Positions 3,213 through 62,796 of a DNA stretch of 64,000 nucleotides are shown piece by piece. Below the pieces are notes generated by a model, which worked only from the letters and a program-made list of their open reading frames with translations, searched no databases and was not told where the DNA came from. Positions within the stretch are counted from its first letter, which is position 1; each line of letters opens with the position of its first letter. The DNA lies in assembly GCA_937928755.1 (NCBI GenBank), contig CALEZI010000127.1:36098-100097 (forward strand), given 5' to 3'. Made by a program: the position numbers and the translations under genes. Source of the DNA: an uncultured Rhodanobacteraceae bacterium. Lineage in GTDB: Bacteria > Pseudomonadota > Gammaproteobacteria > Xanthomonadales > SZUA-5.

Positions 3213-3260
3213 CCGACGTCTTCGCCGGAACGGACCGCAGGTGTCAGAACAGTAGAGCCT

Positions 3261-3366: not shown

Positions 3367-3398
3367 AAAGGCAACCGGATGGCGCGGGCGCCTGCAAC

Positions 3399-8172: not shown

Positions 8173-8813
8173 GAATACAGCGCCTCTTCCAGTGCGGTGA
8201 TCACGGCGCTGTCGTCGAGTAGCGCCATGCGCCCTTGCTCGATGGCCACCACCCCGGACAGGCAGCGCGCCAGTGCCGGCGGCAGCGTCGACGGCACTTC
8301 CTCGATTTGATTCGCCTGAATGCTGCGCAGGCCGGCGACTTCGGTGGCGCGGAAGGCGATCGGCGCGGCGTTGCCCGGCTCCAGCAGCACCAGCCGTGCG
8401 CGCTCGCCCGCGAGTTCGCTGCGCTGGCCCAGTTGCAGAACTTCGATCAGCGCGACGCACAGGTGCAACTCGCCGCGTACCGGCACCAGGCCTTCAAGTC
8501 GGCCACTGCCGCGGTGGGCCACGCGCCGCGGCAGCCGCGCTTCGGCCACTTCGGCGACCCGATCGCAGCGCAGCCCCAGCCATTCGCGCCCAAGGCGGAA
8601 GGTCAGTACCGAGCGCGAGTCCTTTTCCGCACGGTCGCCGAGAGCGGTCGACAACGGCGGCAGCGGATCGGCCTCGCGCCGCAGCAAGCCACGCGCAGCC
8701 TCGCGGAACACGCCGCAATTGCGACAATGAATGTCGTTGCGCAATTGCGCGCAGCTGTGGTCGCCGCCGTAGACGCCGATCTTGCGCCAGCATTGCGCCA
8801 TGGGTTCGCTCAC
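8169..8813 (-). CDS. wspD: CheW-like coupling protein with N-terminal Cys-rich segment (WspD-like)
   Basis: CWRKIGVYGGDHSCAQLRNDIHCRNCGVF followed by a CheW fold. GTG 8813..8811 overlaps the wspC stop (GTGA). An alternative ATG lies at 8801. Confidence 0.75.
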   Translation of the reverse strand: MSEPMAQCWRKIGVYGGDHSCAQLRNDIHCRNCGVFREAARGLLRREADPLPPLSTALGDRAEKDSRSVLTFRLGREWLGLRCDRVAEVAEARLPRRVAHRGSGRLEGLVPVRGELHLCVALIEVLQLGQRSELAGERARLVLLEPGNAAPIAFRATEVAGLRSIQANQIEEVPSTLPPALARCLSGVVAIEQGRMALLDDSAVITALEEALYS

Positions 8814-10036: not shown

Positions 10037-10479
10037 GCGTCGGCCTGCTCGGTGAACAGCGCGCGCAGCGCATCGGGCAGCAGTTCGGCAGGATCGACCA
10101 GTTGTGGCAGGCCGGGCTGGTCGGCGAGGTGCTCGCCCAGCCAGGCATGCTCGGGCAGGTGCAAGCCGGTTGCGCTGCGCTCGCTGTCGATCAGTTCGCT
10201 GACTTGTTCTGCCTGCAAACCGACCAGTCGCGAGTCGCTGCCGTTGCCGATGCGCACGACAATGATGCGCGTGCCCAGTTGCCGCGCCGACGGTCGGCCA
10301 GCGACCAGCAGGGTCAGGTCCACCACCGGCGTCAGCGTTCCGCGGAACGGCAACAGACCGATGACCGCTGCCGGCGCCAGCGGCAATCCGCGCAAGGGCA
10401 CGCGCGGCAGCACTTCGACGATGTCGCGCGCTGCCAGCGCGAGCAGCGAATCGCCGGCGCGGAAGGCGAGCGCGAGCAC
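10033..10479 (-). CDS. wspB: CheW-like coupling protein (WspB-like)
   Basis: 148-aa CheW-domain ORF. Its stop overlaps the wspC start (ATGA). Confidence 0.8.
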   Translation of the reverse strand: MLALAFRAGDSLLALAARDIVEVLPRVPLRGLPLAPAAVIGLLPFRGTLTPVVDLTLLVAGRPSARQLGTRIIVVRIGNGSDSRLVGLQAEQVSELIDSERSATGLHLPEHAWLGEHLADQPGLPQLVDPAELLPDALRALFTEQADA

Positions 10480-10491
10480 TGTGTTCGTCCC

Positions 10492-12141
10492 TCAGCTGCC
10501 GAGGTTGAACTTGGCGATTTCCTGCTTGAGCACGGTGACCGCGTCGCGCAGGCTTTCGGTGGCGGCGTTGAACTCGCGCAACGACAGAGACGTCTGGCGC
10601 GCGCCATCCAGCAACTGGCCCATAGCCTCGCCGATCTGGCGTGCGCCCTGGGACTGGCTGCGCATGCCGTGATTGACGGTGTCGAAGCGCTCCGACAAGG
10701 TCTTCACCTGGCTGATGATCTGTCCGAACTGGCCGCCGACGCGATCGACCGTACCGACGCCGCTGCGAACTTCCTCGGCGAAACGGTCGATTTCCATGAC
10801 GCCGGCCGACACCGCGGTCTGCATCTGCTTGACCATCTGCTCGATGTCGAGCGTGGCTACTGCGGTCTGATCCGCCAGTCGGCGGATCTCGCGCGCCAGC
10901 ACCAGGAATCCGAGTCCCTGTTCGCCGGCTTTCTCGGCTTCGATGGCGGCATTGATCGACAGCAGATTGGTCTGGTCAGCGACCTTGGAAATGGTGGTGA
11001 CGACCCCGGTGATCTCTGCCGCTTCCTCGCGGATCGCGGCGAGACGCGCTGCCATGGCGTTGGCAGCCTGCGCCAGCCGATCCATGGTGCTGTCCAGGTT
11101 CGACAGGCCGGACTGGCCTTGTTCGGCCAGGTCGGCGGTCTGACCAGACACCGCGTTCAGCCCTTCCATGGTCGCCAGCAGTTCCTGGCTGGTCGCGGCG
11201 ATCTGCTTCACCGCGGCAGCGATCTGATTGGTGGATGCGCCAAAACCCTGCACCGTGGATTCCTGCTGGCGGCTGGTCGCGGCAAATTCGGTTGCGGTGC
11301 TCATCAGTTCGACTGACGCCTGTTTCACCCGCGTCACCAATCCGCGCAGGCTCTGATTCATGCCGTTGATCGCGTTCAACAGGCGCCCGGTCTCGTCGCG
11401 ATCGTCGGTGCTCGGCACCGTCGTGGTCAGATCGCCTTGGGCGACTCGATCGGCAATATCGGAAACCAGTTGCACGCGATTGCTCAAGGTGGCGGCTGCG
11501 CGTCGCGCGAACCACGCCATCACCACCACCACCAGCACAATGCCCAGTGCCAGCAGGGATAGCGTGCGCGTCTGGCCGGCGATCAGTTCGTCGGCCTGGG
11601 TTTCGAATTTGGCATTGCGCTGTCGCGCCAGGGCGACGACCTCGACGATGGCATAACGATGCGCTTCATAACGCTGGCGCATCTGTTCGAGGATGCGACG
11701 CGCCTGTTCGCGATCGCCGGCGCGGATGGCGCTGACGAATTCGCCGTCGCGCAATCGGTAGAACTCGAGCGCCGCGCGCGACGAGGTCACCGTCATCAGG
11801 TCGCCCATGGTGTCCTTGGCCAGCGTGCGCTTCCAGTGCTCCTGACGGTTTTCGTACTCGATGCGCAACTCGTTGCCGCGCTCGATCAGCCGGGTGATCT
11901 CGGCCGGATCCTTCTCCTCGACCAGTTGCAGCGTCAGCAGGTAGGACTCGATGATGTATTGCGGAGGCGGCAGGATGTCGGCAATCAAGTCGTTGCCGAG
12001 GATGATCTCGTCGTAGAGCACACCCTTGACCCGAACCTGGTCCAGCGTACGCCAGGCGACCAGCGCGAAGCCGGCGAACAGCACCAGGAATACGCCGACG
12101 AAGAGCGACAATCGTGACGCCAGTTGCGAATTGCGTTGCAT
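10492..12141 (-). CDS. wspA: Methyl-accepting chemotaxis protein (WspA-like)
   Basis: MQRNSQLASRLSLFVGVFLVLFAGFALVAW (TM1), a periplasmic helical domain, TM2, HAMP and an MCP signalling domain (AGEQGLGFLVLAREIRRLADQTAVAT). ATG 12141 follows AGGGAGA. The track ORF starts 38 codons earlier. Confidence 0.85.
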   Translation of the reverse strand: MQRNSQLASRLSLFVGVFLVLFAGFALVAWRTLDQVRVKGVLYDEIILGNDLIADILPPPQYIIESYLLTLQLVEEKDPAEITRLIERGNELRIEYENRQEHWKRTLAKDTMGDLMTVTSSRAALEFYRLRDGEFVSAIRAGDREQARRILEQMRQRYEAHRYAIVEVVALARQRNAKFETQADELIAGQTRTLSLLALGIVLVVVVMAWFARRAAATLSNRVQLVSDIADRVAQGDLTTTVPSTDDRDETGRLLNAINGMNQSLRGLVTRVKQASVELMSTATEFAATSRQQESTVQGFGASTNQIAAAVKQIAATSQELLATMEGLNAVSGQTADLAEQGQSGLSNLDSTMDRLAQAANAMAARLAAIREEAAEITGVVTTISKVADQTNLLSINAAIEAEKAGEQGLGFLVLAREIRRLADQTAVATLDIEQMVKQMQTAVSAGVMEIDRFAEEVRSGVGTVDRVGGQFGQIISQVKTLSERFDTVNHGMRSQSQGARQIGEAMGQLLDGARQTSLSLREFNAATESLRDAVTVLKQEIAKFNLGS

Positions 12142-12306
12142 CTCGATCTCCCTCTGCGGATCGTCACGATCATAACCAGACGCTGCGGCGGTCGCGCGCG
12201 TACAGTGCTTTGGTGGTCCAGACATTTCTGGGCGCTCTCCCTGCCACCGGGCCAACAGCGTCCAGACCAGTATGGACCCACCAGAGCTCGCGTTCCGATC
12301 AGACGA

Positions 12307-18957: not shown

Positions 18958-20646
18958 TCACCCGCGCTGGGCGAGTGCCACGACCAGCACCAGGATCACG
19001 GTCACCCACAACGCCATGCTGCCGATCGGTGACGTGCGGGCGAGTGCGCCTCCCGGCTCGGACCAGCGCGTCAGGCGTTCGACCAGAGGCCGGCCACTGC
19101 GCTGCCAACGAGTGTCGATCAATTCCATCAGCGCGACCCAGATGCGCTCGACCCAGCCCGCAAGGCGCGGCAGCAACATGCGGTAGGTCCAGTCCAGATC
19201 GAGGCTGATGGTCAGCGTGCGTTGCATCGCCGGCAGCATGACGAAGAAGGCGAGGCCGGCGAACAGCAGCAACTGGAACTGGCTGACCAGATGCTCGCCG
19301 GTGTATGGCTGGTAATCGACCGGGTAGGGCAGCAGGCTGTAGAGCAGGCCAGGGAAGCAGCCGATCGCGATGCAGGCGACGGCGAACAGGATCATCGCTG
19401 CACGCATGTTCCACGGTGGATCGGCGGGACGCAGTCCGGAGTCCTTCTGGAAGAACACGAACCACGGGAACTTGATGCCGGCGTGCAGGAACACGCCGGC
19501 GGAGGCGGCGGTCAGCAGATACCAGACCCAGACCATCTGCTGGTCGGCGGCGGCCTGGCTGATCATCGACTTGCTGATGAATCCGGAGGTGAACGGGAAT
19601 GCCGAGATCGCCAGCGCGCCGACGATGCCGCAAAGGGTGGTGATCGGCATGCTCTGGTACAGGCCGCCGAGGTCGGTGCACTTGCGCTTGCCGGTCTGGT
19701 ACAGCACCGCGCCGGCGCTCATCATGAGCAGCGCCTTGTAGATGATGTGGGCGAAGGCGTGCGCTGCGGCGCCGTTGATCGCCATCTGCGTGCCGATGCC
19801 GACGGCGCAGACCATGAAGCCGACCTGGTTGACGATCGAATACGCCAGGATCCGGCGCATGTCGTTTTCCAGCAGCGCGTAGATGATCCCGTAGAACACC
19901 ATGTACAGGCCGATCCAGATCAGGACCTGCGCGCCCGGAAACAGCAGAATCAGCGCTAGCACCGCGGTCTTGGTGGTGAACGCGGTGAGGAACACGCTGC
20001 CGAACGGGCTGCCCTCGGGATAGGCGTCGGCCAGCCACGCGCTGATCGGCGGCGCGGCGGCGTTGATCAGCACGCCGATCAGCACTACCCAGGTGTCGAA
20101 GTTGTCGAGCACCAGCGGGCGCACGTCGATCGATCCGGTGTGGATCATCACGCCTTCGATGCCGATCTTCAGGATCACGCCGCCGACCAGGTGCATCAGT
20201 GCATAACGCACGCCCGCGCGGCGCGCCGCGTCGGTTCCGCCGCACCAGATGACGACCGTGGAGAACAGCGCCATGAACTCCCAGAACAGGAAGAAGGTGA
20301 TCAGGTCGCCGGCAAAACTGACGCCGACGGCGCCGGCCGCATAGGCGTAGCTGGCCGCTGTTTCCTGCCATTTCGCCTGACGCAGGCCGAACAGACCGCC
20401 GGCGAAGGCCATGATCGCGAATGCGGTCGCGAACAGCCGCCGCACCGGGCTGGCCTCGACCAGTTCGATCGGATAGCCGAGGAAGCCGACCGTCATCAGC
20501 ACGCCATCCGGCAACTGCCAGATCGCCCACAGCGTCAGCAACGGCGCAGCGAGCACCAGGACCGGGCGCATCCCGGGGCGCGCAACCGCGATCAGCAGCG
20601 CGCCGAGAATCAGGATGAAGGCGGGCGGAAAAGCCAGTTCAAGCAT
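18958..20646 (-). CDS. Proton-conducting membrane subunit, NuoL/MrpA-N-like or MrpD-like (third paralogue of the Mrp-like cluster)
   Basis: 562 aa, polytopic, with the NuoL/M/N family core (WLADAYPEGSPFGSVFLTAFTTKTAV...AYSIVNQVGFM...HAFAHIIYKALLMMSAG). Confidence 0.8.
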   Translation of the reverse strand: MLELAFPPAFILILGALLIAVARPGMRPVLVLAAPLLTLWAIWQLPDGVLMTVGFLGYPIELVEASPVRRLFATAFAIMAFAGGLFGLRQAKWQETAASYAYAAGAVGVSFAGDLITFFLFWEFMALFSTVVIWCGGTDAARRAGVRYALMHLVGGVILKIGIEGVMIHTGSIDVRPLVLDNFDTWVVLIGVLINAAAPPISAWLADAYPEGSPFGSVFLTAFTTKTAVLALILLFPGAQVLIWIGLYMVFYGIIYALLENDMRRILAYSIVNQVGFMVCAVGIGTQMAINGAAAHAFAHIIYKALLMMSAGAVLYQTGKRKCTDLGGLYQSMPITTLCGIVGALAISAFPFTSGFISKSMISQAAADQQMVWVWYLLTAASAGVFLHAGIKFPWFVFFQKDSGLRPADPPWNMRAAMILFAVACIAIGCFPGLLYSLLPYPVDYQPYTGEHLVSQFQLLLFAGLAFFVMLPAMQRTLTISLDLDWTYRMLLPRLAGWVERIWVALMELIDTRWQRSGRPLVERLTRWSEPGGALARTSPIGSMALWVTVILVLVVALAQRG

Positions 20647-52919: not shown

Positions 52920-55676
52920 ATGACTTCCGAACAACCGTCGACTCTGCAGGCGGCACAGCGACTGTTGCGCGATCTGCGCGCCGGCGACGATGCCCGGCGC
53001 ATCGAGGCGGCGCGACGCATCGAGTCCGATCCGACATTGCGCCAGCACGTCGAGCGCCTGATGGCCGCGACGATCGACTCGCAACCGTCTGCAGGCCACC
53101 CGCCGGACCTGGCAGGGCCGCGACGGGTGGGCGCCTACACGCTGATCGACGAACTCGGCAGCGGCGGCATGGGTGCGGTATTCCTGGCCGAACGCGACGT
53201 CGACGGTACACGGCAGCGCGTGGCGCTGAAGTTGCTGCACGGTATCCCGACCCAGGACGGCCGCCGTCGCTTCGCCCGCGAGCGTGCATTGCTGGCGGGG
53301 CTGAACCATCCGCACATCGCGGCGCTGCTGGACGGCGGCGAGACCGCGGAAGGCCAGCCTTTCCTGGTCATGGAGTACATCGAGGGCGATCCGATCACGC
53401 AGTGGGTGCAGAGCGCCCGGCCGGATCTGGCAAAGCGCCTGCAGACGCTGGTGCGGGTGTGCCGCGCCGTCGAACACGCCCATCAGCGGCTGGTCCTGCA
53501 TCGCGACATCAAGCCCGGCAACATCCTGGTGCGCGCCGACGGCGATCCGGTACTGCTCGACTTCGGCATCGGTCGCGAACTCAGCGACGGCCAGTCGGCG
53601 GACACGGCGACGCTCGTCTTCACGCCGGCCTATGCGGCGCCCGAACAGTTGACCGGCCGCGGCCTGACCACGGCCACCGATGTGTTCGGGCTCGGCGCGG
53701 TGGCCTACGAGGTGCTGAGCGGCGAAAGCCTGACCGAACTTCGTCGCGATGGGTCCAGTTTGCCGCCGCCGAGCGCCACCACGCGCGACCCGCAGATGCG
53801 TGCGGCGCTGCGCGGCGATCTCGACCGGATCACGGCGAAGGCCATGCACTCTGACCCCGAGCGCCGCTACGCGTCGGCGTCGGCACTTGCGGACGATCTG
53901 GAACGATTCCACCAAGGGCGCCCGGTGCTGGCGACGCCGGACAGCCTCGCTTATCGGCTGCGCAAGTTCCTTGGTCGCCACCGTGCCGCGGCCGTCACCG
54001 GTGCGCTGGCGTTGCTGCTGTCTGCCGGATTCGTCTGGCGCCTCGACGTCGAGCGAGATCGCGCGCTCGAGGCCGAGGCCGCGGCCCAGCGCGAGAGCAG
54101 GAGCGCACGCCTTGCGCGCGATTTCCTGGTGTCGGTGTTCGCTTCGGCGTCGCCGCGCGAAACGCTGGGAAAGCCGGTATCGCCGCGCGAGCTGCTCGAC
54201 GGCGCCCGCGAGCGTGTCGAGCGCGAGCTGGGTTCCGATCGGCCTGCCGCCGTGGCGACGTGGATGGCGCTTTCCGACACCTACAACGCGCTCGGCGTGC
54301 CGGAGGCGGCGGCACACGCCGCGGAGCAGGCCTTGCGCCATACCGAAGGCAGCGAAGGCGCCCAGCGCCTGGCGCGCGCCGATGTCATCGAGGCGCTCGG
54401 CGCCGCCTACAACCAGCTCGGCCGTTATCCGGACGCGGCTCCGCTGTACGAAGAACTACTGCGGATCCGTGAGGAGCTGTCGGCGGACGATCCGGTGGCG
54501 CTCGCCAGCAGCTACGGCGAACTCGGCTACGCGGCGCAGAACTACGGCGAATTCCAGCGTTCCGACCAATGGCTGCGGCGCGCACTGGAACTGCTCGACA
54601 GCCAGCGCTCGCGTAATGCAGGAGACGCCGAGGATCGCTGCTATGTGCTTTCTGGCCTGGTCGTGGCGGCCAGCGCGCTCGGCGATCAGCCCGCCGCGCT
54701 GCGCTGGCTGGCGGACGCCGAGGCCGCGTGGGCGAAGCTCGACCCGGATCATCCCGACGGTCTCTACGTGTTGCGTGCACGCGCGCGACTGGCGGAGCTG
54801 CAGGGCCGCTTCGAGGACTCGGTGGCCGACCTGCAGCAGGCGTCCGCGCTGGCGCTGCGGGTCATCGGTGCCGATGCCAGCGTCGTCGCCGGGATCGAGA
54901 ACGATCTGGGCGTTGCGCTGAACGGCCTCGGGCGCTACCGCGAGGCGCTGGTGCACCTGCAGCGGGCGCGCGCGGTGTACCTGCGCCGTGCAGTCAGCGG
55001 CGACGCCAACGTGGCCCACCTGGACGCCAATATCGGCGCCATCTTCGAGAGCATGGGCGACTACGCCCAGGCCATCGATCACGCGCGGCGTGCGCTGGCG
55101 GTGTTCGCCGCGGAAGGCATGGTGGTGGTGGACATGCGCCGTCAGTCGCGCGTGAACCTGGCGCGCGCGCTGAGTTTCGCCGGGCAGCATGCCGAGGCGC
55201 TGGCGGAAATGAGAACGGCGCTGGAGGAGGGCATCGCCAGCGAGGGCAGCGAAAGCCTGACGCACCAGTTGGACCGCTTCCGCCATGCCGGCATCCTGCG
55301 TCGCGCGGGGCAACTCGACGCGGCGTCGGCGGAGCTGGAATCGAGCGCGGCGGCGATTCTCGGCGTCGTCGGCAGCGAGCATCCGCTGAAGCTGCACGTG
55401 TTGCGCTTGCGCGCCCTGATCGCCCGCGATCGCGGCGATGCGCTGGCTGCGACGGCAGAGTTGGAGATGGCTTTGCAGTTCGCCGGCGCGACGGCCGGCG
55501 TCGATCCGGTCGCGACGGCGGAGATCAAGGCCGAGTTGGCCGCACTGTGGAGTGCGACCGATCCCGACCGCGCGCGGCGGCTGGTCGCCGAGGCGCTGCC
55601 GGTGTTGCGCGAGGCGCTGCTGCCGATCGCACCGGCGTTGGTCGCAGCTGAGCGGGTAGAGCGCGCATTGCACTGA
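52920..55676 (+). CDS. Ser/Thr protein kinase with transmembrane segment and C-terminal TPR array
   Basis: Hanks motifs GSGGMGAVFLA, VALKLL, HRDIKPGNIL, DFGIG, TPAYAAPEQ. TM segment AAAVTGALALLLSAGFVW. A long TPR-like C-terminus. 918 aa. Confidence 0.9.
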   Translation: MTSEQPSTLQAAQRLLRDLRAGDDARRIEAARRIESDPTLRQHVERLMAATIDSQPSAGHPPDLAGPRRVGAYTLIDELGSGGMGAVFLAERDVDGTRQRVALKLLHGIPTQDGRRRFARERALLAGLNHPHIAALLDGGETAEGQPFLVMEYIEGDPITQWVQSARPDLAKRLQTLVRVCRAVEHAHQRLVLHRDIKPGNILVRADGDPVLLDFGIGRELSDGQSADTATLVFTPAYAAPEQLTGRGLTTATDVFGLGAVAYEVLSGESLTELRRDGSSLPPPSATTRDPQMRAALRGDLDRITAKAMHSDPERRYASASALADDLERFHQGRPVLATPDSLAYRLRKFLGRHRAAAVTGALALLLSAGFVWRLDVERDRALEAEAAAQRESRSARLARDFLVSVFASASPRETLGKPVSPRELLDGARERVERELGSDRPAAVATWMALSDTYNALGVPEAAAHAAEQALRHTEGSEGAQRLARADVIEALGAAYNQLGRYPDAAPLYEELLRIREELSADDPVALASSYGELGYAAQNYGEFQRSDQWLRRALELLDSQRSRNAGDAEDRCYVLSGLVVAASALGDQPAALRWLADAEAAWAKLDPDHPDGLYVLRARARLAELQGRFEDSVADLQQASALALRVIGADASVVAGIENDLGVALNGLGRYREALVHLQRARAVYLRRAVSGDANVAHLDANIGAIFESMGDYAQAIDHARRALAVFAAEGMVVVDMRRQSRVNLARALSFAGQHAEALAEMRTALEEGIASEGSESLTHQLDRFRHAGILRRAGQLDAASAELESSAAAILGVVGSEHPLKLHVLRLRALIARDRGDALAATAELEMALQFAGATAGVDPVATAEIKAELAALWSATDPDRARRLVAEALPVLREALLPIAPALVAAERVERALH

Positions 55677-55680
55677 CCCC

Positions 55681-55716
55681 AACGAGAAAGGCGCGCTTTC
55701 GCGCGCCTTTCTCGTT
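55681..55716. terminator. Bidirectional hairpin between the convergent kinase and porin genes
   Basis: aacgagaaaggcgcgc-tttc-gcgcgcctttctcgtt (16-bp perfect stem). No clear T-tract on either strand. Confidence 0.6.
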
Positions 55717-55732: not shown

Positions 55733-58069
55733 TCAGAAGCGATATCCGACACTGAAGGTGGTCACCCACACATCGTAATCGGGGCTGCTTCCACCCATGC
55801 TGATGACGTTGGCCATCTGGTTGGGCGGGGCGTTGTCGACCGCCCAGTCGGTGGAGTCGAACTGCTCGTAAGCGAAGCGCAGGCGGAACACGATGTTGCG
55901 GCGCCAGGCGTAGTCGCCGTACAGGCTCGCCGAAGTCAGATCGCTCACCGAGGTTGGCAATGGACGCGCTGTGAGACCCGATCCAACCGTGGTGTAGACA
56001 TCGGAATCGGCTGCGGAATCCACCCAGTCGAAGCCCAGCGTCAGCTTGTCTTCGAGCAGTTTGGTATTGATGCCCGCGCCCCAGGTGAACACGTGATCGC
56101 GACTCCTGACGTTCCAGCTGCGTGCGGGGTCGTAGATCTGCGTACCGCGGGTTGCGCCGCCGAAAGAGGAACCATCCTGGTCGTTCTTGTAACGTTCCTC
56201 GGAGGCAAACGCATAGGCCGTGAGTCCCGCACGCGGTGCCCAGGCGACGTCGACATTGTAGGCACTGACGCGCGAGAAGGTCAGGCCTTTCAGGGAGTTG
56301 TTGTAGTCGTCTTCGGCGTAACTCACGCTGGCGCTGAGCGAGACTTCTTCCACCGGCATGAAGCTGGCATAGATTTCACCGTCGAGACGTTCACGATCGG
56401 CCTGGTTGAACTTGCGCAGGTCCGGGTGATTCTCGAACGGGAAACCGTCGACGAAGGGCACCACGTTGTTGTAGTAGCCCGGCGAATAACCACCGATGAA
56501 TGTGGTGTAGCCCAGGTACTCGCTGCCGCCGTCGCGATCGGAACTGCTCATGCGCAGTCCACCACTGACGTAGCCGCCGGTGTCCACCGCAAAGTTCAAC
56601 GTGTAGAGATCCTCTTCGATCTCTTCGCGTTCCTGATGCGGACGCTCGGTCTGGCGCCAACGCGCTTCGCCGGTGACCCGCAGCCAATCGCTGGCATTCC
56701 AGTTGGCGTCGAGCTTGAAGTACTGGTCTTCATAGCTCTTCGGTTCGTTGATGCGCCGCTGGATGCTGGTCAACCCGGTGTTCTGAGCCAGCGAATCGCC
56801 ACCGATGTAGACGAACTCATGATGATGCGTCTTGTTGTCGCGTTCGTCGTACTTGTAGCTGGCGCCGAGTGCCAAAGTATCGAAAGGCCTGGTCGTGAAT
56901 TTCAGCGCGATGTGCGTGGTGTCGACTTCGCCATCGAGCGAGTTCACCGGCAGCGGCTGGGTGATCGTCGCCGCCAGCAGCGGGTTGATCGTGTACGGCA
57001 GGAAAGCCTGGTCCTGGGTGCCGCGGCCGAACGAAACCACGCCGCTGAGACGAGTGGTCCTGGAGAAATTCCAGCCGCCGCTCAGATTCAACTGGTGGAA
57101 ATCGTTGTCCGGTTCCAGGTGCATCTGCCCCTGACCGTTCGGATAACCCACCTGCGCGGTCGGCGTCCAGCCGTTGATGCTGGAGTAGGGGTTCTGCCAC
57201 ACCAGCGAGTTGTTGCCGTTCTCGAAGAACGAACCGTAATAGCCGAAGGTGAGCTGCTTGGTGCTGTCGGCATAACTCAACACGGCGTCGACCGTGCGCG
57301 TTTCATAGTCCACCGGCTCCGGGGCAATGACCGCGCGCGGATTGCCGCCGGAATTGCCATGAGTCAGTGCGATGGTCTTGTTGCCGTCCTTCTGTTCCAG
57401 GTTGTAGTTGACCTCGAAGTTCCAGCCCGACAGGAAGTTGACGTCGCCGCCGATGTCGAAGCGCTCGCGCTCGTGTTCGATGGCGAAGGTGCGCAGGTTC
57501 GGCACCAGTTGCGTCATCGTCGCCGTGTTCTGGCCGGGTACCCAGCCTGCCGGCAGCGTCAGGTTGGTACTGCCCGCACCGTTGAAGATGGTCTGCGTAT
57601 CGTCGAGCTGGTAGTGGGGAATCTGGTCGAAACCAATGTGGAAATTCCACGCGCCTTGTCGGCCCGCCTCGAAGAGGATGTCGCGCGAATCGATGCCGAG
57701 GTTGCGCCCGGTCAGGCGCCAATAACCGGCATCGTCGCCATCCCACGGACCACGGCTGTAGATGTCGAGATTGACGACCGGAAACAGGCCGTCGTCCTCG
57801 AGGCCGGTATAGCGGCCGAAGCGGTAGGAGGGGTTGGACACGTTGCCGATTCCGACTTCGACATAGTTCTTCACCACAGTCTGCTCTTCGAGCAGCAGTG
57901 AGCTTTCGTCTTCTTCGTCGTCGGCTTCGTCGGCGTCCTGGGCGCTCAAGCTACCGCTGGCCAGGGCGGCGGCAAACACCGAAGCCCATATTGCACCGTG
58001 GAAAAGAACATTGCCGCGGAAAAGGCTCTCGCGAATGGCCTTGCTCAGCAATTTGTGCTGGTTGTTCAT
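55733..58069 (-). CDS. MtrB/PioB-family outer-membrane beta-barrel (decahaem-associated porin)
   Basis: 778 aa. Signal, then an acidic stretch (AQDADEADDEEDE). YRFGRYTGL...GYWRLTGRNLGIDSRD...FDQIPHY with alternating beta-strand character, ending in the terminal aromatic FSVGYRF. It lies immediately downstream of the decahaem gene. There is no Cys anywhere in the protein. Confidence 0.8.
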   Translation of the reverse strand: MNNQHKLLSKAIRESLFRGNVLFHGAIWASVFAAALASGSLSAQDADEADDEEDESSLLLEEQTVVKNYVEVGIGNVSNPSYRFGRYTGLEDDGLFPVVNLDIYSRGPWDGDDAGYWRLTGRNLGIDSRDILFEAGRQGAWNFHIGFDQIPHYQLDDTQTIFNGAGSTNLTLPAGWVPGQNTATMTQLVPNLRTFAIEHERERFDIGGDVNFLSGWNFEVNYNLEQKDGNKTIALTHGNSGGNPRAVIAPEPVDYETRTVDAVLSYADSTKQLTFGYYGSFFENGNNSLVWQNPYSSINGWTPTAQVGYPNGQGQMHLEPDNDFHQLNLSGGWNFSRTTRLSGVVSFGRGTQDQAFLPYTINPLLAATITQPLPVNSLDGEVDTTHIALKFTTRPFDTLALGASYKYDERDNKTHHHEFVYIGGDSLAQNTGLTSIQRRINEPKSYEDQYFKLDANWNASDWLRVTGEARWRQTERPHQEREEIEEDLYTLNFAVDTGGYVSGGLRMSSSDRDGGSEYLGYTTFIGGYSPGYYNNVVPFVDGFPFENHPDLRKFNQADRERLDGEIYASFMPVEEVSLSASVSYAEDDYNNSLKGLTFSRVSAYNVDVAWAPRAGLTAYAFASEERYKNDQDGSSFGGATRGTQIYDPARSWNVRSRDHVFTWGAGINTKLLEDKLTLGFDWVDSAADSDVYTTVGSGLTARPLPTSVSDLTSASLYGDYAWRRNIVFRLRFAYEQFDSTDWAVDNAPPNQMANVISMGGSSPDYDVWVTTFSVGYRF

Positions 58070-58099
58070 GGCGTATCTCGCATGCGATCGGCGTTGAGG

Positions 58100-59038
58100 T
58101 CAGCGCGTGAAGCGCGGGCCGGACGGATGGTTGGAACCGTGCACTTCACCGTGACAGTTCATGCAGTTCTTGTGCAGCATCTGCTGCGCGCCGGAAGGCC
58201 GCGTCGCGCCGGGCAGACCGGTTCCGCTGTAGGCCGTGCTCGGGTGCTGGTTGGCAAGATGGCAGGTCTGGCACAGCCAGGGCCCGCGCTGCTTGAGCAT
58301 GCCGGTGTGTATCGACCCGTGCGGCGAATGGCAGATGGTGCAGTCCTCCGTCACCGGCTGGTGTTCCCAGAGCATCGGGCCGCGCTTGTCGGCATGGCAG
58401 TTGTTGCAGGTTTCATTGACCGTGTTCTTGACCAGATTGCCCTGGCTCATGGAGCCGTGCGGATTGTGGCAACCGGTGCAAGTCATTTCGCCTTCACGAA
58501 TCGGATGGCGGAAGGGCTTGGTCATGGCGGCGCGCTGGTCCTGGTGACAGGTCAGGCAGACGTCCGCCTGCAGCGTCTTGTCGAGCACCGGGTCCTGAGC
58601 GACGTGCGTGTTATGGCAGTCGGCGCATGCCAGATTCTCGGTTTCGTGGCGACTGCCTTGCCAATGCATCAGTTGCTTGCCGTTGTGGCAGCTCTGACAC
58701 TGGCCATTGCCAATGCTCGTGTCCTTTTCTTCGAAGGTCACATCGGGCGGCAGCGAGTCGTCGTCGAGATGAGACTGGCTCGGTCCGTGACAACTGGTGC
58801 AGGCGTCATTGGCCATCGGCGTGCGGCTGTCGGCGACGACGCCATGTTTGGTCATGAGGATCGACAGCACTGGGTGCTCCGACTCCTCGTCATGGCAGCG
58901 GACGCATTTTTTGTATCCCGGGTCGTCCGCGCCGACCTTGTCTTGCGCAGTGGCCGTCGAGCCGGCGAGCAGCGCTCCGGCCAGCAGGAACAATCCTGTC
59001 AGCAGCGCCCCATGAGCTCGTTTCCTGTACGTCCGCAT
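58100..59038 (-). CDS. Decahaem c-type cytochrome, MtrA/DmsE/MtoA/PioA family
   Basis: Ten CXXCH motifs (CVRCH, CTSCH, CQSCH, CADCH, CLTCH, CTGCH, CNNCH, CTICH, CQTCH, CMNCH) in ~312 aa. Signal MRTYRKRAHGALLTGLFLLAGALLAG. ATG 59038 follows AAGGAGGAG. Confidence 0.9.
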   Translation of the reverse strand: MRTYRKRAHGALLTGLFLLAGALLAGSTATAQDKVGADDPGYKKCVRCHDEESEHPVLSILMTKHGVVADSRTPMANDACTSCHGPSQSHLDDDSLPPDVTFEEKDTSIGNGQCQSCHNGKQLMHWQGSRHETENLACADCHNTHVAQDPVLDKTLQADVCLTCHQDQRAAMTKPFRHPIREGEMTCTGCHNPHGSMSQGNLVKNTVNETCNNCHADKRGPMLWEHQPVTEDCTICHSPHGSIHTGMLKQRGPWLCQTCHLANQHPSTAYSGTGLPGATRPSGAQQMLHKNCMNCHGEVHGSNHPSGPRFTR

Positions 59039-59306
59039 GATCTCCTCCTTGTGACTCTGCATCAGAAACTTGATAAATCGGCGCCAATCCTGATCTACCG
59101 CGTCTGGACCTCACCGGTCATTCGCTACCTGCCGCACGAGAATCCGCAGCGCTGCCGCGGCTTCCCCAAATCCTCTTCTGCCCGTCGGAACATCATCACC
59201 GTGGCGCAATTGCATGCCTGAATCTGATTGCGCGGCCATGGGACGAATGCTCCGGTGCTCAAGCTTTGATGTTGCCCTAGCCTGAACCGCAGCGGATGCC
59301 GAAGTA

Positions 59307-59320
59307 TTGATCGAAGTCAA
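59307..59320. promoter_or_regulatory. FNR/CRP-family-type box TTGATCGAAGTCAA upstream of the decahaem cytochrome gene
   Basis: TTGAT-N4-GTCAA, 269 bp upstream of ATG 59038 in the 511-bp spacer. Confidence 0.45.
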
Positions 59321-59508
59321 TGCAGTGTGAATACGCGAGCGCGCCTCACAGCGCCCAAACGGGTACCGCGTTGCGTCGGTGCGCCTCTGCCGTGGGAGCA
59401 ATACAAGGAGGTGGGATTGCCGGCGAGATGGGGGTGTTGCGGTGGTCGGTCCGGGCCGGGTCCGGACGAGTTCGTGCGTCGCCGATTCTGGAACGAATCG
59501 GGAACGCA

Positions 59509-59532
59509 GAGCGGACCCCGCAGGGTCCGCTC
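59509..59532 (-). terminator. Hairpin just downstream of the monohaem cytochrome gene (possible terminator/attenuator)
   Basis: gagcggaccc-cgca-gggtccgctc (10-bp stem), 18 nt after the stop. No strong U-tract on the minus strand. Confidence 0.4.
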
Positions 59533-59549
59533 ATTGCCTTCTTTTCAGG

Positions 59550-59891
59550 TCAGTGCGACAACAACCACTGTGCCAGGTTCTTCAGTTCGGCCTGGTCGGT
59601 GGTCTTGATCTTCTTGTGCTTTTCCTTTTCGCCATCGATCTCGATTTCCGGGCCGGTGGTGATTGCCGTGATCACCAACTGCTCTGCGTCGGGCTTGCCC
59701 TTGAGATCTGCCGCCATCTTCTTCAGCGACGGTCCCGACTTGTCCTTCGTGGCGTGATGACAACCACCGCATTTGTTGCTCTTCATCAGCTTTTCGGCTG
59801 CCTTCGCATCGATCTCGGCGTAGGCGGGATTCAGTCCCGCAAAGGCGAGAAACAACGAGCCGGCGAGAATCAGGGAAACGGACTGGTTCAT
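59550..59891 (-). CDS. Monohaem class I c-type cytochrome (c551/c8-like fold), periplasmic
   Basis: Signal MNQSVSLILAGSLFLAFAGLNPAYA. KSNKCGGCHHATKDKSGPSLKKMAADLKG aligns by eye with c551 [29 protein letters not shown]. C-terminal helix ELKNLAQWLLSH. Strong RBS AAGGAGGA. Confidence 0.8.
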   Translation of the reverse strand: MNQSVSLILAGSLFLAFAGLNPAYAEIDAKAAEKLMKSNKCGGCHHATKDKSGPSLKKMAADLKGKPDAEQLVITAITTGPEIEIDGEKEKHKKIKTTDQAELKNLAQWLLSH

Positions 59892-60051
59892 GGGTTCCTC
59901 CTTGGTTGAGCGGTGATCGCTGCCATACGCAGAGTGGTGCGGTAGCGGAATCGATCAGTCGACAGTGTACGACGAGGCAACGTCGGCACAGCCATCGCCG
60001 ATCATCCTACACCGCACAGATGAACCGTAGCGGCGACCCTGGCCATGAGTG

Positions 60052-60065
60052 TTGATCGCTGTCAA
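60052..60065. promoter_or_regulatory. FNR/CRP-family-type box TTGATCGCTGTCAA upstream of the monohaem cytochrome gene
   Basis: TTGAT-N4-GTCAA, 161 bp upstream of ATG 59891. TACGGT (minus strand, 60029..60024) lies ~32 bp from the box centre. Confidence 0.5.
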
Positions 60066-60247
60066 CGTCCGCGCGACCGGCGCGGCGTAACTTGTCGGCC
60101 GTGCGCCCGGAGATCCTCGCGTAGCCGTTGTGGATACTTTGCCTTCGCCCGGCTTGCGGCGGCTACACTGAGGTAGAGTTGTCAAGATCCCCATGCGAGC
60201 ACTGATCGTCCGATGCGATCGAACATTTGACTACGGAAGACCTGACA

Positions 60248-60403
60248 ATGTCGAAGCTGATTGCGCGGTTGAAACAAATCATCCTGTTCCTGCTGTCGCC
60301 ATTCATCGCGTTGGCGTACATGGCAGCGTTTCCGGGCGTCGCGCTGAAGATGCTGGTATCCGGGAATACGGGCGATACTGAGGGTCGCGGCGGCAGCGCC
60401 TGA
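60248..60403 (+). CDS. Possible 51-aa small membrane protein (below the ORF-track size cut-off)
   Basis: MSKLIARLKQIILFLLSPFIALAYMAAFPGVALKMLVSGNTGDTEGRGGSA: one hydrophobic helix and GC3-rich codons. Weak RBS; opposite strand to the surrounding cytochrome genes. Confidence 0.3.
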   Translation: MSKLIARLKQIILFLLSPFIALAYMAAFPGVALKMLVSGNTGDTEGRGGSA

Positions 60404-60526
60404 CAGGGTGCAGGCCGTCGGTTTGTGCGTGCTTCCGCCCTCGGCGGGAGTGTGCTGCACTGCGGGAGTCTGTGCCGCAGCGTTCCGATGCGTATCTTCG
60501 CCCGTGCGTTTGTTCGCGCATCGAAC

Positions 60527-60580
60527 CTGTGGGAGCGGGTTTATCCCGCGAAAGCGCTCGCGGAGTAAGTCCGCTCCCAG
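60527..60580. repeat. Second REP type (single copy in this window), immediately 3' of the cytochrome b gene
   Basis: ctgtgggagcgggtttatcccgcgaaagcgctcgcggagtaagtccgctcccag. Outer inverted repeat tgggagcgg/ccgctccca and inner cccgcga/tcgcgg. Confidence 0.65.
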
Positions 60581-60583
60581 GCC

Positions 60584-61240
60584 TCAGCGAACGTCCGGTG
60601 CGTCAGTCTTTGCGACGGGTTCGTCGTCGACCTCTTCGTATCCGGTGATCATGCCCTTGGTGTGCGCGCCGAAGGTGTGGCCAAGGGTGACCAGATACAG
60701 ATGGGTCATCAGGAACCCGATGAAGGCGATGGTCAGCAACATGTGCACGGTCGAAATCACGCGCAGCCCGCCGAACATCTCGATCTGGCCGGCGAATCCG
60801 ACCGAATCCCACAGCAATACACCGGTGTAGAACTGCAACGGCAGCATCACCAGCATGACGATCTGGTAGGTCATCGCCTGCATCGGATTGAACTTCTTCT
60901 CAGGCGTGACCCGAAATGGATTGCGCTCGCCGTGCAGGATTCCCCAGGCGTAGAAGTACGCTTGCCGATACATGGCCGGGAAGTATTTGCTCGGACTCAG
61001 CTCGGGTTGATAGACGGAAATCTTGTTCGAGAAGAAGTAGAAAAACAGCCACAACAGGAAATTGGCGCCGACGAAAAAACCGACCCAATTGTGCAGCACC
61101 ACCGCATCACGGAAGGTCATCACATCAAACAGGCCTGCGTAGCGGATCTGCAGTCCGGTAAGGATCAACAACAAGATCCCCAACGCGTTGAGCCAATGCC
61201 AGATCCTGACCGGCAGCGGATGGATGTAAATCTTGCGCAT
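60584..61240 (-). CDS. Cytochrome b561 / HydC-FdnI-type membrane dihaem cytochrome b
   Basis: MRKIYIHPLPVRIWHWLNALGILLLILTGLQIRY (family N-terminal motif). Four predicted TM helices with conserved His (HW, HNW, VHMLL, THLY). ATG 61240 follows AGGAGAG; the track ORF starts 18 codons earlier. Confidence 0.8.
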   Translation of the reverse strand: MRKIYIHPLPVRIWHWLNALGILLLILTGLQIRYAGLFDVMTFRDAVVLHNWVGFFVGANFLLWLFFYFFSNKISVYQPELSPSKYFPAMYRQAYFYAWGILHGERNPFRVTPEKKFNPMQAMTYQIVMLVMLPLQFYTGVLLWDSVGFAGQIEMFGGLRVISTVHMLLTIAFIGFLMTHLYLVTLGHTFGAHTKGMITGYEEVDDEPVAKTDAPDVR

Positions 61241-61303
61241 GATGCTCTCCTGCCAATTCTGAAGTCGCGTTAGGGCTTGCGCCGCTGGTTGCATTCGGAC
61301 CGG

Positions 61304-62656
61304 CTATTTCCCATCGCGTTCACGGAGCTTTGCTTCGGCCTTTTCGCGAGCACGGCGAAACAGCCATCTGGCGACAATGTGTACCAGCAGACCGGCGGCC
61401 ATGCCGGCGACAACCAGCAGCAGCAGGTAGTCGAACAGTTTGATGCGGGTGCTGCCGAGCACATAGAAACCTTTCACGGCGTCGATCGAGAACAGCGAGT
61501 TGAGGACTTCGCTGCGGACTTCATGACGCAACGGTCGGCCGTCAGGCCCAGCCATGCTCAGGACCACGGTCTGGAAGGGTTCTGCGCCAGACTGGTGACA
61601 AAGTTTGCAGTCGCTGATTGCTTCGGACTTGGCCGCCAACTGGTGCGCCTGAACGCCAGAAGTGACCTCAAGGCGCCCGCGGACGACGGTCTTGCTCTCG
61701 CCGGCTTCCTCAGTGAATTCTTTCAACAGGCTCAGAAGTTCGCGGTCGCCCAGTCCGGTTCCGTCGGCATCGGCTGCCCTGGCACTCTTGACGAATTGCG
61801 GCACGCCGGTCTTCTCCAGCATCTGCTTCTGGTCTTTGCCGGTGCCCTCATACAGTCGCAGGTTGACTCTGCGCTCCGCGGTCGGTGCGTGGCAAACCGG
61901 GCAGGAGATCGCCTCGAAATGGCGTTCGCTGTTGGGTAGCCAGACCTTGTGCTTTTCGGCGGCGTCCTCGTGACAGTCGAGACAGGTATCCCGGATGCCA
62001 CTGCCCAGGGACGCTGCCTTCACGCCGTGCGCCTGGTGGCAGCCCGAGCAGACCGGCGCCTTGCTGTCCTTGTCTGCCTGCGCCAGACCGTGCACGTCTT
62101 TTGCCGATGCTTCGAAGATGGCTTCGTGGCACTTGCCGCACGGCATCGCGGCTTCGGGTTCGGCAAGTTCCCACGAGGTCACCGTGTGGGGGTTGTGGCA
62201 ATCCGCGCACATCGGCGCCTTTTCGTTGCCTTGCGCGATCAGCAGCGCGTGTACGCTGTCATCGTATTCGCGATACTTCTTCTTGTGGCAGTCGCGACAC
62301 GAGTCGCCCATCGAAACGCCGAGTTCGCGCTTGCTGGTGATGGTCGACTGACCCTGACCATGGTCTTCGATGTCGATTTCGTAGTGGCAGTCGGTGCAAC
62401 TGTTTTCGTTGTGCATCGAACCAAGGAAGGCTTCGGTCGAGATGTGCAATGACAGGGTCTCGCCACTTTCCAGCTTGGTCGAAAGCTTTGGATCGTCGTG
62501 GCACTCGAGACACGCAAGATCCTCTTCAGCGAGTTCGATCTCGTCTTCGGCGTCTTCGTCTTGCGCCAACGCCAGCATGGGGGCTGAGATCAGCAAAGCG
62601 AGTACGCCAGCCAACAGCCAGTTCCAGGGTCGCGATGCAGGAGAGGGCGTATTCAT
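61304..62656 (-). CDS. Nonahaem c-type cytochrome with signal peptide and single C-terminal TM anchor
   Basis: Nine CXXCH motifs (CLECH, CTDCH, CRDCH, CADCH, CGKCH, CSGCH, CLDCH, CPVCH, CKLCH). Signal WNWLLAGVLALLISAPMLALA. C-terminal helix LFDYLLLLVVAGMAAGLLVHIVARWLF followed by basic residues. Confidence 0.85.
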   Translation of the reverse strand: MNTPSPASRPWNWLLAGVLALLISAPMLALAQDEDAEDEIELAEEDLACLECHDDPKLSTKLESGETLSLHISTEAFLGSMHNENSCTDCHYEIDIEDHGQGQSTITSKRELGVSMGDSCRDCHKKKYREYDDSVHALLIAQGNEKAPMCADCHNPHTVTSWELAEPEAAMPCGKCHEAIFEASAKDVHGLAQADKDSKAPVCSGCHQAHGVKAASLGSGIRDTCLDCHEDAAEKHKVWLPNSERHFEAISCPVCHAPTAERRVNLRLYEGTGKDQKQMLEKTGVPQFVKSARAADADGTGLGDRELLSLLKEFTEEAGESKTVVRGRLEVTSGVQAHQLAAKSEAISDCKLCHQSGAEPFQTVVLSMAGPDGRPLRHEVRSEVLNSLFSIDAVKGFYVLGSTRIKLFDYLLLLVVAGMAAGLLVHIVARWLFRRAREKAEAKLRERDGK

Positions 62657-62782: not shown

Positions 62783-62796
62783 TTGAGCATAGTCAA
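62783..62796. promoter_or_regulatory. FNR/CRP-family-type box TTGAGCATAGTCAA in the divergent region between the nonahaem cytochrome and the MenA-like gene
   Basis: TTGAG-N4-GTCAA, 127 bp upstream of ATG 62656 (minus) and 162 bp upstream of ATG 62958 (plus). Confidence 0.45.

Follow-up and report, generated by a model that had tools for sequence, protein, structure and literature searches.

The 64,000-nucleotide stretch analysed here (positions 36,098 to 100,097 of contig CALEZI010000127.1, assembly GCA_937928755.1, from an uncultured Rhodanobacteraceae bacterium; hereafter the window) carries, at 55733-62656, five genes that probably specify a three-tier trans-envelope electron conduit running from the quinone pool to the cell surface. 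These genes encode a nonahaem c-type cytochrome (C9), a four-helix cytochrome b (cytB), a monohaem cytochrome of the MtoD type and a porin-cytochrome pair of the MtoA and MtoB families. Since an MtoAB porin-cytochrome, an MtoD homologue and a quinone-facing bc module are found together, a full quinone-to-surface path is plausible. What appears to be new is the combination, namely, an Mto-type conduit with a nonahaem inner-membrane partner of the CbcBA type, apparently FNR-controlled and accompanied by a conserved small membrane peptide, in an uncultured member of the Xanthomonadales. Of all parts of extracellular electron transfer, the points where electrons enter or leave at the inner membrane are the least understood, and for Fe(II) oxidisers in particular only CymA/ImoA and MtoC have, to our knowledge, been proposed as such points. 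The features of the locus, in window coordinates, are the following (TM, transmembrane; ORF, open reading frame; RBS, ribosome-binding site).

61304-62656, minus strand: C9, CbcA-like nonahaem c-type cytochrome, 450 aa; signal peptide, nine CXXCH motifs, C-terminal TM anchor with invariant His426
60584-61240, minus strand: cytB, CbcB-like 4-TM dihaem cytochrome b; PF01292; invariant His15, His50, His166 and His180
59550-59891, minus strand: MtoD-like periplasmic monohaem cytochrome c, 113 aa; signal peptide, CGGCH, candidate distal His in EKHKK
58100-59038, minus strand: periplasmic decahaem of the MtoA/MtrA family, 312 aa from the RBS-supported start; the ORF reaches 59062
55733-58069, minus strand: outer-membrane barrel of the MtoB/MtrB/PioB family, 778 aa; signal peptide, C-terminal ...GYRF, zero Cys
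60248-60403, plus strand: conserved 51-aa single-TM ORF in the cytB-mtoD gap; motif SPFIALAYMAAFP
60052-60065, no strand: FNR/CRP-family-type palindrome TTGACAGCGATCAA, ~167 bp 5' of the mtoD start
59307-59320, no strand: FNR/CRP-family-type palindrome TTGACTTCGATCAA, ~275 bp 5' of the mtoA start
62783-62796, no strand: degenerate FNR-type box TTGACTATGCTCAA, one mismatch, in the divergent C9/UbiA intergenic region, ~130 bp 5' of C9
62958-63923, plus strand: divergent UbiA-family, MenA-like prenyltransferase; a conserved neighbour of uncertain membership in the system
55691-55704, minus strand: terminator-like GC hairpin with T-rich tail right behind the mtoB stop; weak evidence

An initial annotation of the window had listed five genes on the minus strand, and all five ORFs are present at these positions, with family scores far beyond chance. 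Its gene content thus stood, although it had overlooked the 51-aa ORF on the opposite strand, the gaps of 692 bp (cytB-mtoD) and ~510 bp (mtoD-mtoA), and the FNR-type boxes inside them; only 30 bp separate mtoA from mtoB. The gap of 63 bp that it gave between the nonahaem and cytochrome b genes was reproduced with the cytB start at 61240, which has a GGAGAG RBS and yields a 218-aa protein (the mechanical ORF runs from 61294 to 60584). The G+C content of the cluster is 60.2% (55.7% in cytB, 56.1% in mtoD) against 64.6% in the rest of the window, which is compatible with an old horizontal acquisition. No CXXCH protein was found among the called genes of the window outside the cluster, and Rfam models gave a single sub-threshold chance match between 55 and 64 kb.

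C9 carries its nine CXXCH motifs at residues 49, 87, 120, 150, 173, 203, 225, 252 and 350, and has, as annotated, a signal peptide and one C-terminal TM helix, which is strongly hydrophobic (~405-433) and followed by a basic tail. Ten non-motif periplasmic His residues and the anchor His426 are invariant among 64 aligned homologues, and this is enough for bis-His ligation of nine haems. The assignment of the second gene to the cytochrome b561 family was equally sound: cytB has four hydrophobic segments and matches PF01292 with 87.9 bits (cutoff 30.1), its best NCBIfam hit being a PhsC-like match of 125.7 bits, under the cutoff of 204. His15, His50, His166 and His180 are invariant in 79 C9-linked and 56 CbcB-like sequences, sufficient for two b haems. 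The only relative of C9 with a solved structure was 28pb_A, a 278-residue heptahaem chain that aligns to C9 residues 117-380 (E=1.4e-13). Its Protein Data Bank (PDB) entry is titled just 'Cytochrome c', and its code is printed as '2BPB' in a 2026 review that reports the structure of Geobacter CbcA as solved (PMC13591261). An AlphaFold2 model of C9 (64 sequences; an apo model of a multihaem protein) reached a mean predicted local distance difference test score (pLDDT) of 63.9, and with it Foldseek returned nothing at E<=0.001 from the PDB up to April 2026, a release that possibly lacks 28pb.

Relatives of C9 numbered 778 in a search of 5.8 billion proteins; the best 120 of them measure 416-525 aa, save one 375-aa fragment, and none contains a PF01292 domain. 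Scanning one genome per species gave 80 C9 loci with flanks of ~10 kb, which are cited below by L numbers where they have to be told apart. A cytochrome b gene directly follows that of C9 in every locus with enough downstream sequence (77/77); the two-gene c/b form is the ancestral and normal state of this family, not a split. The closest genome-resolved C9 comes from a Rhodanobacteraceae metagenome-assembled genome (MAG; 80% identity), followed by a MAG labelled 'Xanthomonas sp.' (74%), while the other loci are mostly from Burkholderiales, at 47-62% (Rhodoferax, Polaromonas, Comamonadaceae, Sulfuritalea, Rhodocyclaceae and Ideonella). Placement of the window in the Xanthomonadales was based on the closest such relatives of C9 and of MtoA.

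As reference for CbcA and CbcB we took the metagenome loci L085-L087, retrieved with the 28pb sequence. The 349-aa heptahaem of L085 shares 95% identity with 28pb and ends in a TM helix, and a 218-aa 4-TM protein is encoded 3 bp downstream; in L086 and L087 a receiver protein is encoded in addition upstream, and a 329-aa dodecahaem downstream. Both gene order and haem counts agree with the cbcA-cbcB-cbcC context described previously (10.1101/2021.04.15.440034, PMC13591261). Comparison with these sequences gave the following results. First, cytB is 39% identical to the L085-type CbcB, itself 218 aa long like cytB, over 207 of 218 aa (E=8e-51), and the two families align over 212 columns with an HHalign probability of 100% (E=3.5e-66), whereas no similarity was detected between cytB and the MtoC-type b domain of L075 (BLASTP E=0.53; HHalign probability 3.6%). 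Second, C9 is 25% identical to the CbcA homologue over 320 aa, from haem 4 to the anchor helix (E=3e-25; HHalign 99.9%, columns 48-447), and His426 pairs in the alignment with the anchor His of CbcA. Third, haem spacing in C9 is 38, 33, 30, 23, 30, 22, 27 and 98, so that its last seven haems (30, 23, 30, 22, 27, 98) stand against 33, 23, 22, 24, 29 and 99 in CbcA. The corresponding series are 41, 24, 53, 31, 31, 25, 30, 28 in the MtoC type, where the 668-aa fused protein of L075 is spaced as Rfer_4073 and Galf_2006, and 23, 25, 23, 24, 29, 28, 43, 28 in CbcL. The gap of ~98 residues ahead of the final haem is common to C9 and CbcA and absent from CbcL and MtoC. Judged from sequence, C9-cytB is therefore a CbcBA-type pair and not a split CbcL, its membrane part, anchor design and C-terminal module being CbcBA-like.

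The initial annotation had read the two genes as a CbcL/MtoC-type protein split into two polypeptides, and this impression was not baseless, since the c domains of C9, CbcA and MtoC are mutually related. Nine haems precede a PF01292 domain in the same order, a nonahaem periplasmic domain before a dihaem b membrane domain, and the N-terminal part of C9, with eight haems, shows homology to the c domain of MtoC-type proteins (HHalign 99.7%, 242 columns; BLASTP E=1e-17). However, proteins of the CbcL (GSU0274), MtoC and MtrH type are single polypeptides of 619-680 aa that differ from the pair in haem spacing, lack both the 98-residue insert and a separate anchor helix, and carry six TM helices in a b domain unrelated in sequence to the four-TM cytB, which is CbcB-like over its full length. 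The sizes recorded for them are 619 aa for CbcL, 655-673 aa for MtoC and 662 aa for MtrH, in each case with six TM helices after nine haem motifs (PMC6295460, Table S2), and CbcB and CbcL, in the words of Joshi et al., 'share no sequence homology' (10.1101/2021.04.15.440034). Moreover, fused MtoC/MtrH-type (CbcL-homologous) genes lie at most 10 kb from C9-cytB in seven loci (L023, L028, L031, L037, L051, L056 and L075). A split CbcL is thus very improbable, and at the level of family membership it is refuted, with the pair falling in the CbcBA family. The functional class first proposed survives nonetheless, since CbcBA is also a quinol oxidoreductase of extracellular electron transfer: a quinone-facing bc-type module in the inner membrane stands, by homology to CbcBA, and the CbcL identity does not. 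Also to be weighed is an accessory electron path for another reductase, such as a PhsC-type thiosulfate reductase, an Otr/Nrf-type enzyme or a DmsEF-type dimethyl sulfoxide reductase, as might be suspected from the PhsC hit of cytB, from the naming of the decahaem family TIGR03508 after DmsE, and from an Otr-like octahaem in L080 that shares the design of an anchored cytochrome with a cytochrome b. This is scarcely credible, given that the PhsC score lies below its cutoff, that homologues of CbcB are usually annotated as 'thiosulfate reductase'-like according to Joshi et al. (10.1101/2021.04.15.440034), a remark that matches the sub-threshold PhsC hit, and that no molybdoenzyme, PhsAB, DmsAB, NrfA or Otr gene occurs in the window flanks. 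With partner enzymes absent and scores below cutoff, the PhsC, DmsEF, Nrf and Otr readings were rejected.

The octahaem of L080 (14397-18548) belongs to a second unit of anchored cytochrome plus cytochrome b, in which a 538-aa protein with a His-containing C-terminal TM helix comes first, then a PF01292 protein of 206 aa that shares 30% identity with cytB of the window, and then a 619-aa putative outer-membrane protein. As for the fused MtoC/MtrH-type genes, extra MtoD-like genes often stand beside them, and some genomes keep both inner-membrane modules.

Turning to the periplasmic and outer-membrane tiers, the third gene had been called c551-like, a label of which the monohaem part holds (one CGGCH) and the c551 part does not: its best solved relative is 4xxl_A, the MtoD of Sideroxydans (E=2.2e-18, residues 4-112, 109 residues), with c551 chains reaching E ~1e-4. 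The product matches PF00034, its gene has an AAGGAGG RBS, and the His of EKHKK, aligned with that of EEHKN in MtoD, is the candidate distal ligand instead of Met. The same match bears out the proposed Mto-like periplasmic module; the MtoD of Sideroxydans is a bis-His protein with a potential of +155 mV (PMC4412085). The reading of the last two genes as a decahaem and a barrel of the MtrA/DmsE and MtrB/PioB types, and hence as a Mto/Pio-type porin-cytochrome, was also borne out, the two forming a bona fide MtrA/MtrB-family pair without MtrC. The decahaem, with ten CXXCH motifs and a signal peptide, scores 275.7 bits against TIGR03508 (cutoff 192.2) and matches 6r2q_A, the MtrA of the solved MtrCAB complex, with E=1.9e-77; its ORF of 320 aa (59062 to 58100) probably starts at 59038, behind an AAGGAGG site, to give 312 aa. 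The 778-aa barrel, encoded directly downstream, scores 449.7 bits against TIGR03509 (cutoff 240.05; profile positions 3-662 of 662) and E=5.5e-144 against PF11854, and it has an N-terminal hydrophobic segment and the aromatic end ...GYRF. Having zero Cys, MtoB lacks the N-terminal CXXC of Shewanella MtrB, a motif that Wee et al. in 2014 reportedly found absent from MtoB/PioB. In S. oneidensis, C42 of this motif is needed for Fe(III) reduction (PMC12175506).

The survey of C9 loci revealed how the inner-membrane pair is combined with the other tiers. An MtoD-like gene occurs in the flanks of 53 of the 80 loci, and MtoA plus MtoB, as MtoAB or MtrCAB, in those of 13. The exact five-gene order is found again in four Xanthomonadales-type loci, L002, L003, L082 and L166, and also in an isolate, Rhodoferax sp. 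U2-2l (L052). Six Burkholderiales loci, one from Ca. Aalborgicola (L062) and five from Rhodoferax (L069, L073, L078, L079 and L081), show the order C9-cytB-MtoD-MtrC-MtrA-MtrB, with an MtrC-like decahaem of 800-920 aa between mtoD and mtrA. A different Mto cluster is present in two Xanthomonadales MAGs, a Rhodanobacter sp. and a Xanthomonadaceae bacterium (L165, 6296-11397; L167, 6403-11289), where a CymA/NapC-like tetrahaem and an EB_dh (DOMON-like) protein precede MtoA and MtoB, so that at least two inner-membrane solutions exist in the order; in L167 a UbiE-type methyltransferase stands immediately 5' of this cluster.

Conserved elements lie in the gaps inside the cluster. The exact consensus TTGAY-N4-ATCAA of the FNR/ANR/DNR type has two matches in 64 kb, against an expectation of 0.18 from shuffled sequence, and they fall one in each intra-cluster gap, 5' of mtoD and of mtoA. 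Alignment of the gaps with L002, L003 and L082 revealed conserved palindromes: the box upstream of mtoD is kept in these three, that upstream of mtoA in all four Xanthomonadales-type loci, and one-mismatch boxes occupy the same position upstream of C9 in L082, L002 and L003. Exact boxes also precede C9, mtoD or mtoA in L052, L062, L069, L070, L073, L079 and L081; none was found upstream of these three genes in L078. Comparable boxes thus accompany most of the Mto/Mtr-linked Burkholderiales loci that were inspected. The cluster thus appears to be read from three promoters with FNR/ANR/DNR-type boxes and, if a regulator of this family is indeed what binds them, as we infer, it should switch on when oxygen is scarce. 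Scans for sigma70 promoters and terminators gave counts at the shuffled-sequence expectation, and among these candidates only the hairpin after mtoB is positionally sensible; with counts at chance level, it is weak evidence.

A sigma54-type -24/-12 match was not found in the window cluster. The strict motif TGGCAY-N5-TTGCW lies upstream in 17 of 74 Burkholderiales loci, which take 17 of its 29 matches in 2.5 Mb, and no locus of the 74 combines it with an FNR box. In two stand-alone Burkholderiales loci that were inspected (L012/L168 and L169), genes for two receiver proteins lie upstream, those for a sigma54 activator and a HAMP kinase downstream. Pairwise similarity between receiver proteins of Burkholderiales and Geobacter operons was not significant, and so only an analogous regulatory context is claimed with respect to the sigma54 control of Geobacter cbcBA. 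C9-cytB therefore comes in two mutually exclusive styles, sigma54 promoters in stand-alone loci and FNR-type boxes in Mto/Mtr-linked loci, the latter comprising the window, L002, L003, L082, L052, L069, L070, L073 and L081. This division suggests that one module was rewired to respond to different ecological triggers.

The 51-aa ORF shows conservation at the protein level, with changes in excess at the third codon position, across five loci (the window, L082, L003, L002 and L166). Its motif SPFIALAYMAAFP, or (A/S)PFIGL(A/V)YA..LP, recurs in 73 of the 80 C9 loci, either in a small gene that stands free or in TM tails, one to three in tandem, at the C-terminus of a receiver protein, and is absent from Geobacter-type cbcBA loci; no Pfam family matched the ORF. 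The peptide may be a third or accessory subunit, or a membrane-tethered regulator. Among relatives, the motif ORF was located at 12180-12332 in L082, 8934-9077 in L003, 6318-6461 in L070 and 9737-9826 in L168. On the other side of C9, the UbiA-family prenyltransferase (PF01040, 83 bits) has only MenA among its best NCBIfam hits, at 117.8 against a cutoff of 264, and adjoins C9 also in L002 (1164-2084) and L082 (8726-9655). This MenA-like neighbour may hint at a dedicated naphthoquinone-type carrier in a presumed ubiquinone lineage.

When placed next to known systems, the pair resembles most closely CbcBA of Geobacter sulfurreducens (Cbc5; GSU0593/GSU0594), with which it shares adjacent genes in the order c then b, a four-TM PF01292 subunit usually annotated as 'thiosulfate reductase-like', a multihaem subunit held by a His-bearing C-terminal TM anchor, the gap of ~98-99 residues before the last haem, an all-bis-His potential and, in the Burkholderiales relatives, sigma54-type regulation. 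It differs in that C9 has nine haems to the seven of CbcA, the two extra ones being N-terminal (residues 49 and 87); in its FNR-type boxes, where Geobacter has sigma54/BccR control with a receiver-domain protein; in its linkage to MtoD and MtoAB instead of the dodecahaem CbcC; in its small TM peptide; and in its host, which is presumably ubiquinone-based, whereas Geobacter CbcBA oxidises (mena)quinol to serve extracellular acceptors below -0.21 V. With HydC/HyaC and FdnI, cytB shares PF01292, four TM helices, His residues on TM1, TM2 and twice on TM4, and a partner subunit held by a C-terminal TM helix; that partner is an Fe-S protein there and a multihaem cytochrome here, and cytB scores under the respective cutoffs (66.9 against 121.5 and 43.5 against 115.9). 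The MtrA-family decahaem within an MtrB-family barrel is shared with MtrCAB of Shewanella and Rhodoferax and with PioAB of Rhodopseudomonas, but the locus has neither a gene for an MtrC/OmcA surface decahaem lipoprotein nor one for a PioC-type high-potential iron-sulfur protein; we also take its MtoA to lack the long N-terminal extension of PioA. Closest in overall composition are mtoA-mtoB-mtoC-mtoD of Gallionella capsiferriformans ES-2 and Dechloromonas aromatica RCB, and mtoABD-cymA of Sideroxydans lithotrophicus ES-1, all with a decahaem MtoA, an MtoB barrel, a monohaem MtoD, a quinone-active cytochrome of the inner membrane and no MtrC. In those clusters, the latter is a fused six-TM MtoC or a tetrahaem CymA/ImoA; here it is a CbcBA-type complex of two subunits, its genes come first, and the host is a Xanthomonadales gammaproteobacterium.

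From these parts the following conduit can be proposed. In the inner membrane, the four-TM cytB, with two b haems and a quinone site, would trade electrons with the pool of quinones, and C9 would dock beside it through the His-bearing anchor helix to form a nine-haem, all-bis-His wire. MtoD would shuttle electrons in the periplasm, and the decahaem MtoA, threaded in the MtoB barrel, would carry them across the outer membrane without a surface cytochrome of the MtrC type. Low oxygen would induce expression, and the 51-aa peptide might serve as an accessory subunit. If electrons are taken up, those from Fe(II), reduced humics or a cathode would pass via MtoAB, MtoD and C9/cytB to quinone, and on to denitrification or low-oxygen respiration.

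For the direction of flow, we lean towards uptake, to which we give no better than an even chance. Several observations point that way: the lack of MtrC and of any other CXXCH protein in the window, and an MtoB without Cys and hence without the CXXC needed for Fe(III) reduction in Shewanella. FdnGHI/HydC-type cytochromes b, moreover, take up electrons from the periplasm and pass them to quinone in a half-loop that conserves energy, and it is this normal direction, from the periplasm to quinone, that speaks for uptake at cytB. To this is added the presence of an MtoD homologue, a protein known from clusters of Fe(II) oxidisers (PMC4412085, PMC5566968), and the implication of Rhodanobacter in nitrate-dependent Fe(II) oxidation (PMC11366258). 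Other considerations weigh against this picture of an inward conduit. As the initial annotation rightly cautioned, direction cannot be read from such sequences, and the phylogeny of MtrA/MtrB gives none (Baker et al., PMC8805035); Geobacter CbcBA, the only genetically characterised member of the family, is an outward menaquinol oxidase for the reduction of Fe(III) and electrodes (10.1101/2021.04.15.440034); and anoxic induction together with a MenA-like neighbour would be no worse a fit to outward respiration than to uptake. Gaps of 692 and ~510 bp with separate promoters mean that the genes are not one tight operon, and 67 of the 80 C9-cytB pairs have no MtoAB within 10 kb, which makes the coupling facultative. 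Both the conduit and the role of C9-cytB are, in addition, predicted here from the genes of an uncultured organism.

Two explanations have to be set against the uptake conduit. The same chain could work outwards, quinol being oxidised at the CbcBA-like complex and electrons leaving via MtoD and MtoAB for Fe(III) in soluble or chelated form, for Mn(IV), humics or electrodes, or for partner cells, and this deserves serious consideration, even if we place it short of an even chance. Geobacter needs CbcBA to reduce Fe(III) and electrodes, and cbcBA has been put forward as a marker of extracellular respiration (10.1101/2021.04.15.440034). Operons of anaerobic reductases typically carry FNR-type boxes, a conserved MenA-like prenyltransferase adjoins, and in Rhodoferax relatives the same C9-cytB-MtoD module is tied to a full MtrCAB. 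Yet neither cluster nor window has a surface decahaem (MtrC/OmcA), MtoB misses the CXXC motif and the MenA-like protein stays under every family cutoff. Xanthomonadales are expected to use ubiquinone, moreover, with a potential that disfavours the reduction of most Fe(III) minerals. Alternatively, the neighbours could be independent, C9-cytB (with MtoD) acting as a general quinone:periplasmic cytochrome c oxidoreductase for other enzymes and MtoAB being fed by other carriers. The many pairs without MtoAB in their flanks, often under sigma54 and two-component control, the large gaps and separate promoters, and the use of a CymA-like protein by other MtoAB clusters of Xanthomonadales would all agree with this. 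We nevertheless find it unlikely, because the linkage recurs in two orders, at 13 loci and in different gene orders, which argues for selection on proximity, because the same type of box lies ahead of all three units, and because the window encodes no other partner enzyme nearby. On these grounds we infer that the three tiers are physically coupled, and we retain the conduit as the favoured reading of the locus.

It is tempting to speculate further that C9-cytB, the small TM peptide and the MtoD-like protein represent a widespread, unnamed proteobacterial branch of CbcBA that would act as a third portable quinone-pool adaptor for Mto/Mtr conduits, beside CymA/ImoA and MtoC/CbcL. In the Xanthomonadales it might run 'backwards' with respect to Geobacter, extracellular electrons from Fe(II) or a cathode reducing ubiquinone in a half-loop that generates proton-motive force, under FNR/DNR control alongside denitrification. 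We regard this extended scenario as doubtful in its entirety.

Part of what had seemed novel at first is already on record. The initial annotation took the joining of a CbcL-like module to Mto genes as undescribed, but mtoA-mtoB-mtoC-mtoD, in which MtoC is a nonahaem inner-membrane cytochrome and a CbcL homologue, is known from Gallionella ES-2 and Dechloromonas RCB (PMC5566968, PMC6295460), and Baker et al. describe mtoC and mtoD as passengers of betaproteobacterial mtrCAB (PMC8805035). Nor is the lineage one in which electroactivity comes as a surprise, as had been supposed, since Rhodanobacter from a culture that oxidises Fe(II) and reduces nitrate has been reported to carry genes resembling those of MtoAB, CymA and MtrB (PMC11366258), and CymA-type MtoAB clusters occur in the Xanthomonadales MAGs mentioned above. 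In the literature consulted we found no description of a CbcBA-type module next to Mto/Mtr genes, and none of Rhodoferax sp. U2-2l. The homologues of CbcBA listed by Joshi et al. come from Anaeromyxobacter, Calditrichaeota, Bacteroidetes, Verrucomicrobia and Chloroflexi, Beta- and Gammaproteobacteria not being listed (10.1101/2021.04.15.440034), and a link between CbcBA and Mto/Mtr in two proteobacterial orders would extend the family past the phyla named by its discoverers. It would also add a marker for genome surveys with tools of the FeGenie type. Since it is already accepted that Mtr/Mto systems exchange their quinol dehydrogenases as modules, the finding refines this picture and does not overturn it. 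The isolate Rhodoferax sp. U2-2l, with the same five genes, offers a tractable test organism, and Rhodanobacteraceae-like bacteria of activated sludge and groundwater are relevant to nitrate-dependent iron oxidation and to bioelectrochemical systems.

Further observations concern the surroundings of the cluster and of its relatives. In L082, the closest metagenome relative (C9 87% identical), a Hyb-type [NiFe] uptake hydrogenase operon with maturation genes lies just past the UbiA gene (1-6840), and an exact FNR-type box at 6906, 5' of this operon, suggests that the two may be co-regulated lithotrophic modules. Synteny with L082 from mtoB to DUF6491, DASS-transporter and PpnN genes is interrupted in the window by a 918-aa Ser/Thr protein kinase with TPR repeats (52920-55676, plus strand; G+C 70.5%), which is absent in L082. 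Elsewhere in the window, subunit D of an Mrp-type Na+/H+ antiporter is encoded at 18958-20646, Mrp genes flanking the L166 cluster as well, and a block of chemotaxis and cyclic di-GMP signalling genes (a CheA-CheY hybrid, CheR, a methyl-accepting chemotaxis protein and a PleD-like diguanylate cyclase) occupies 3399-12255 as unrelated context.

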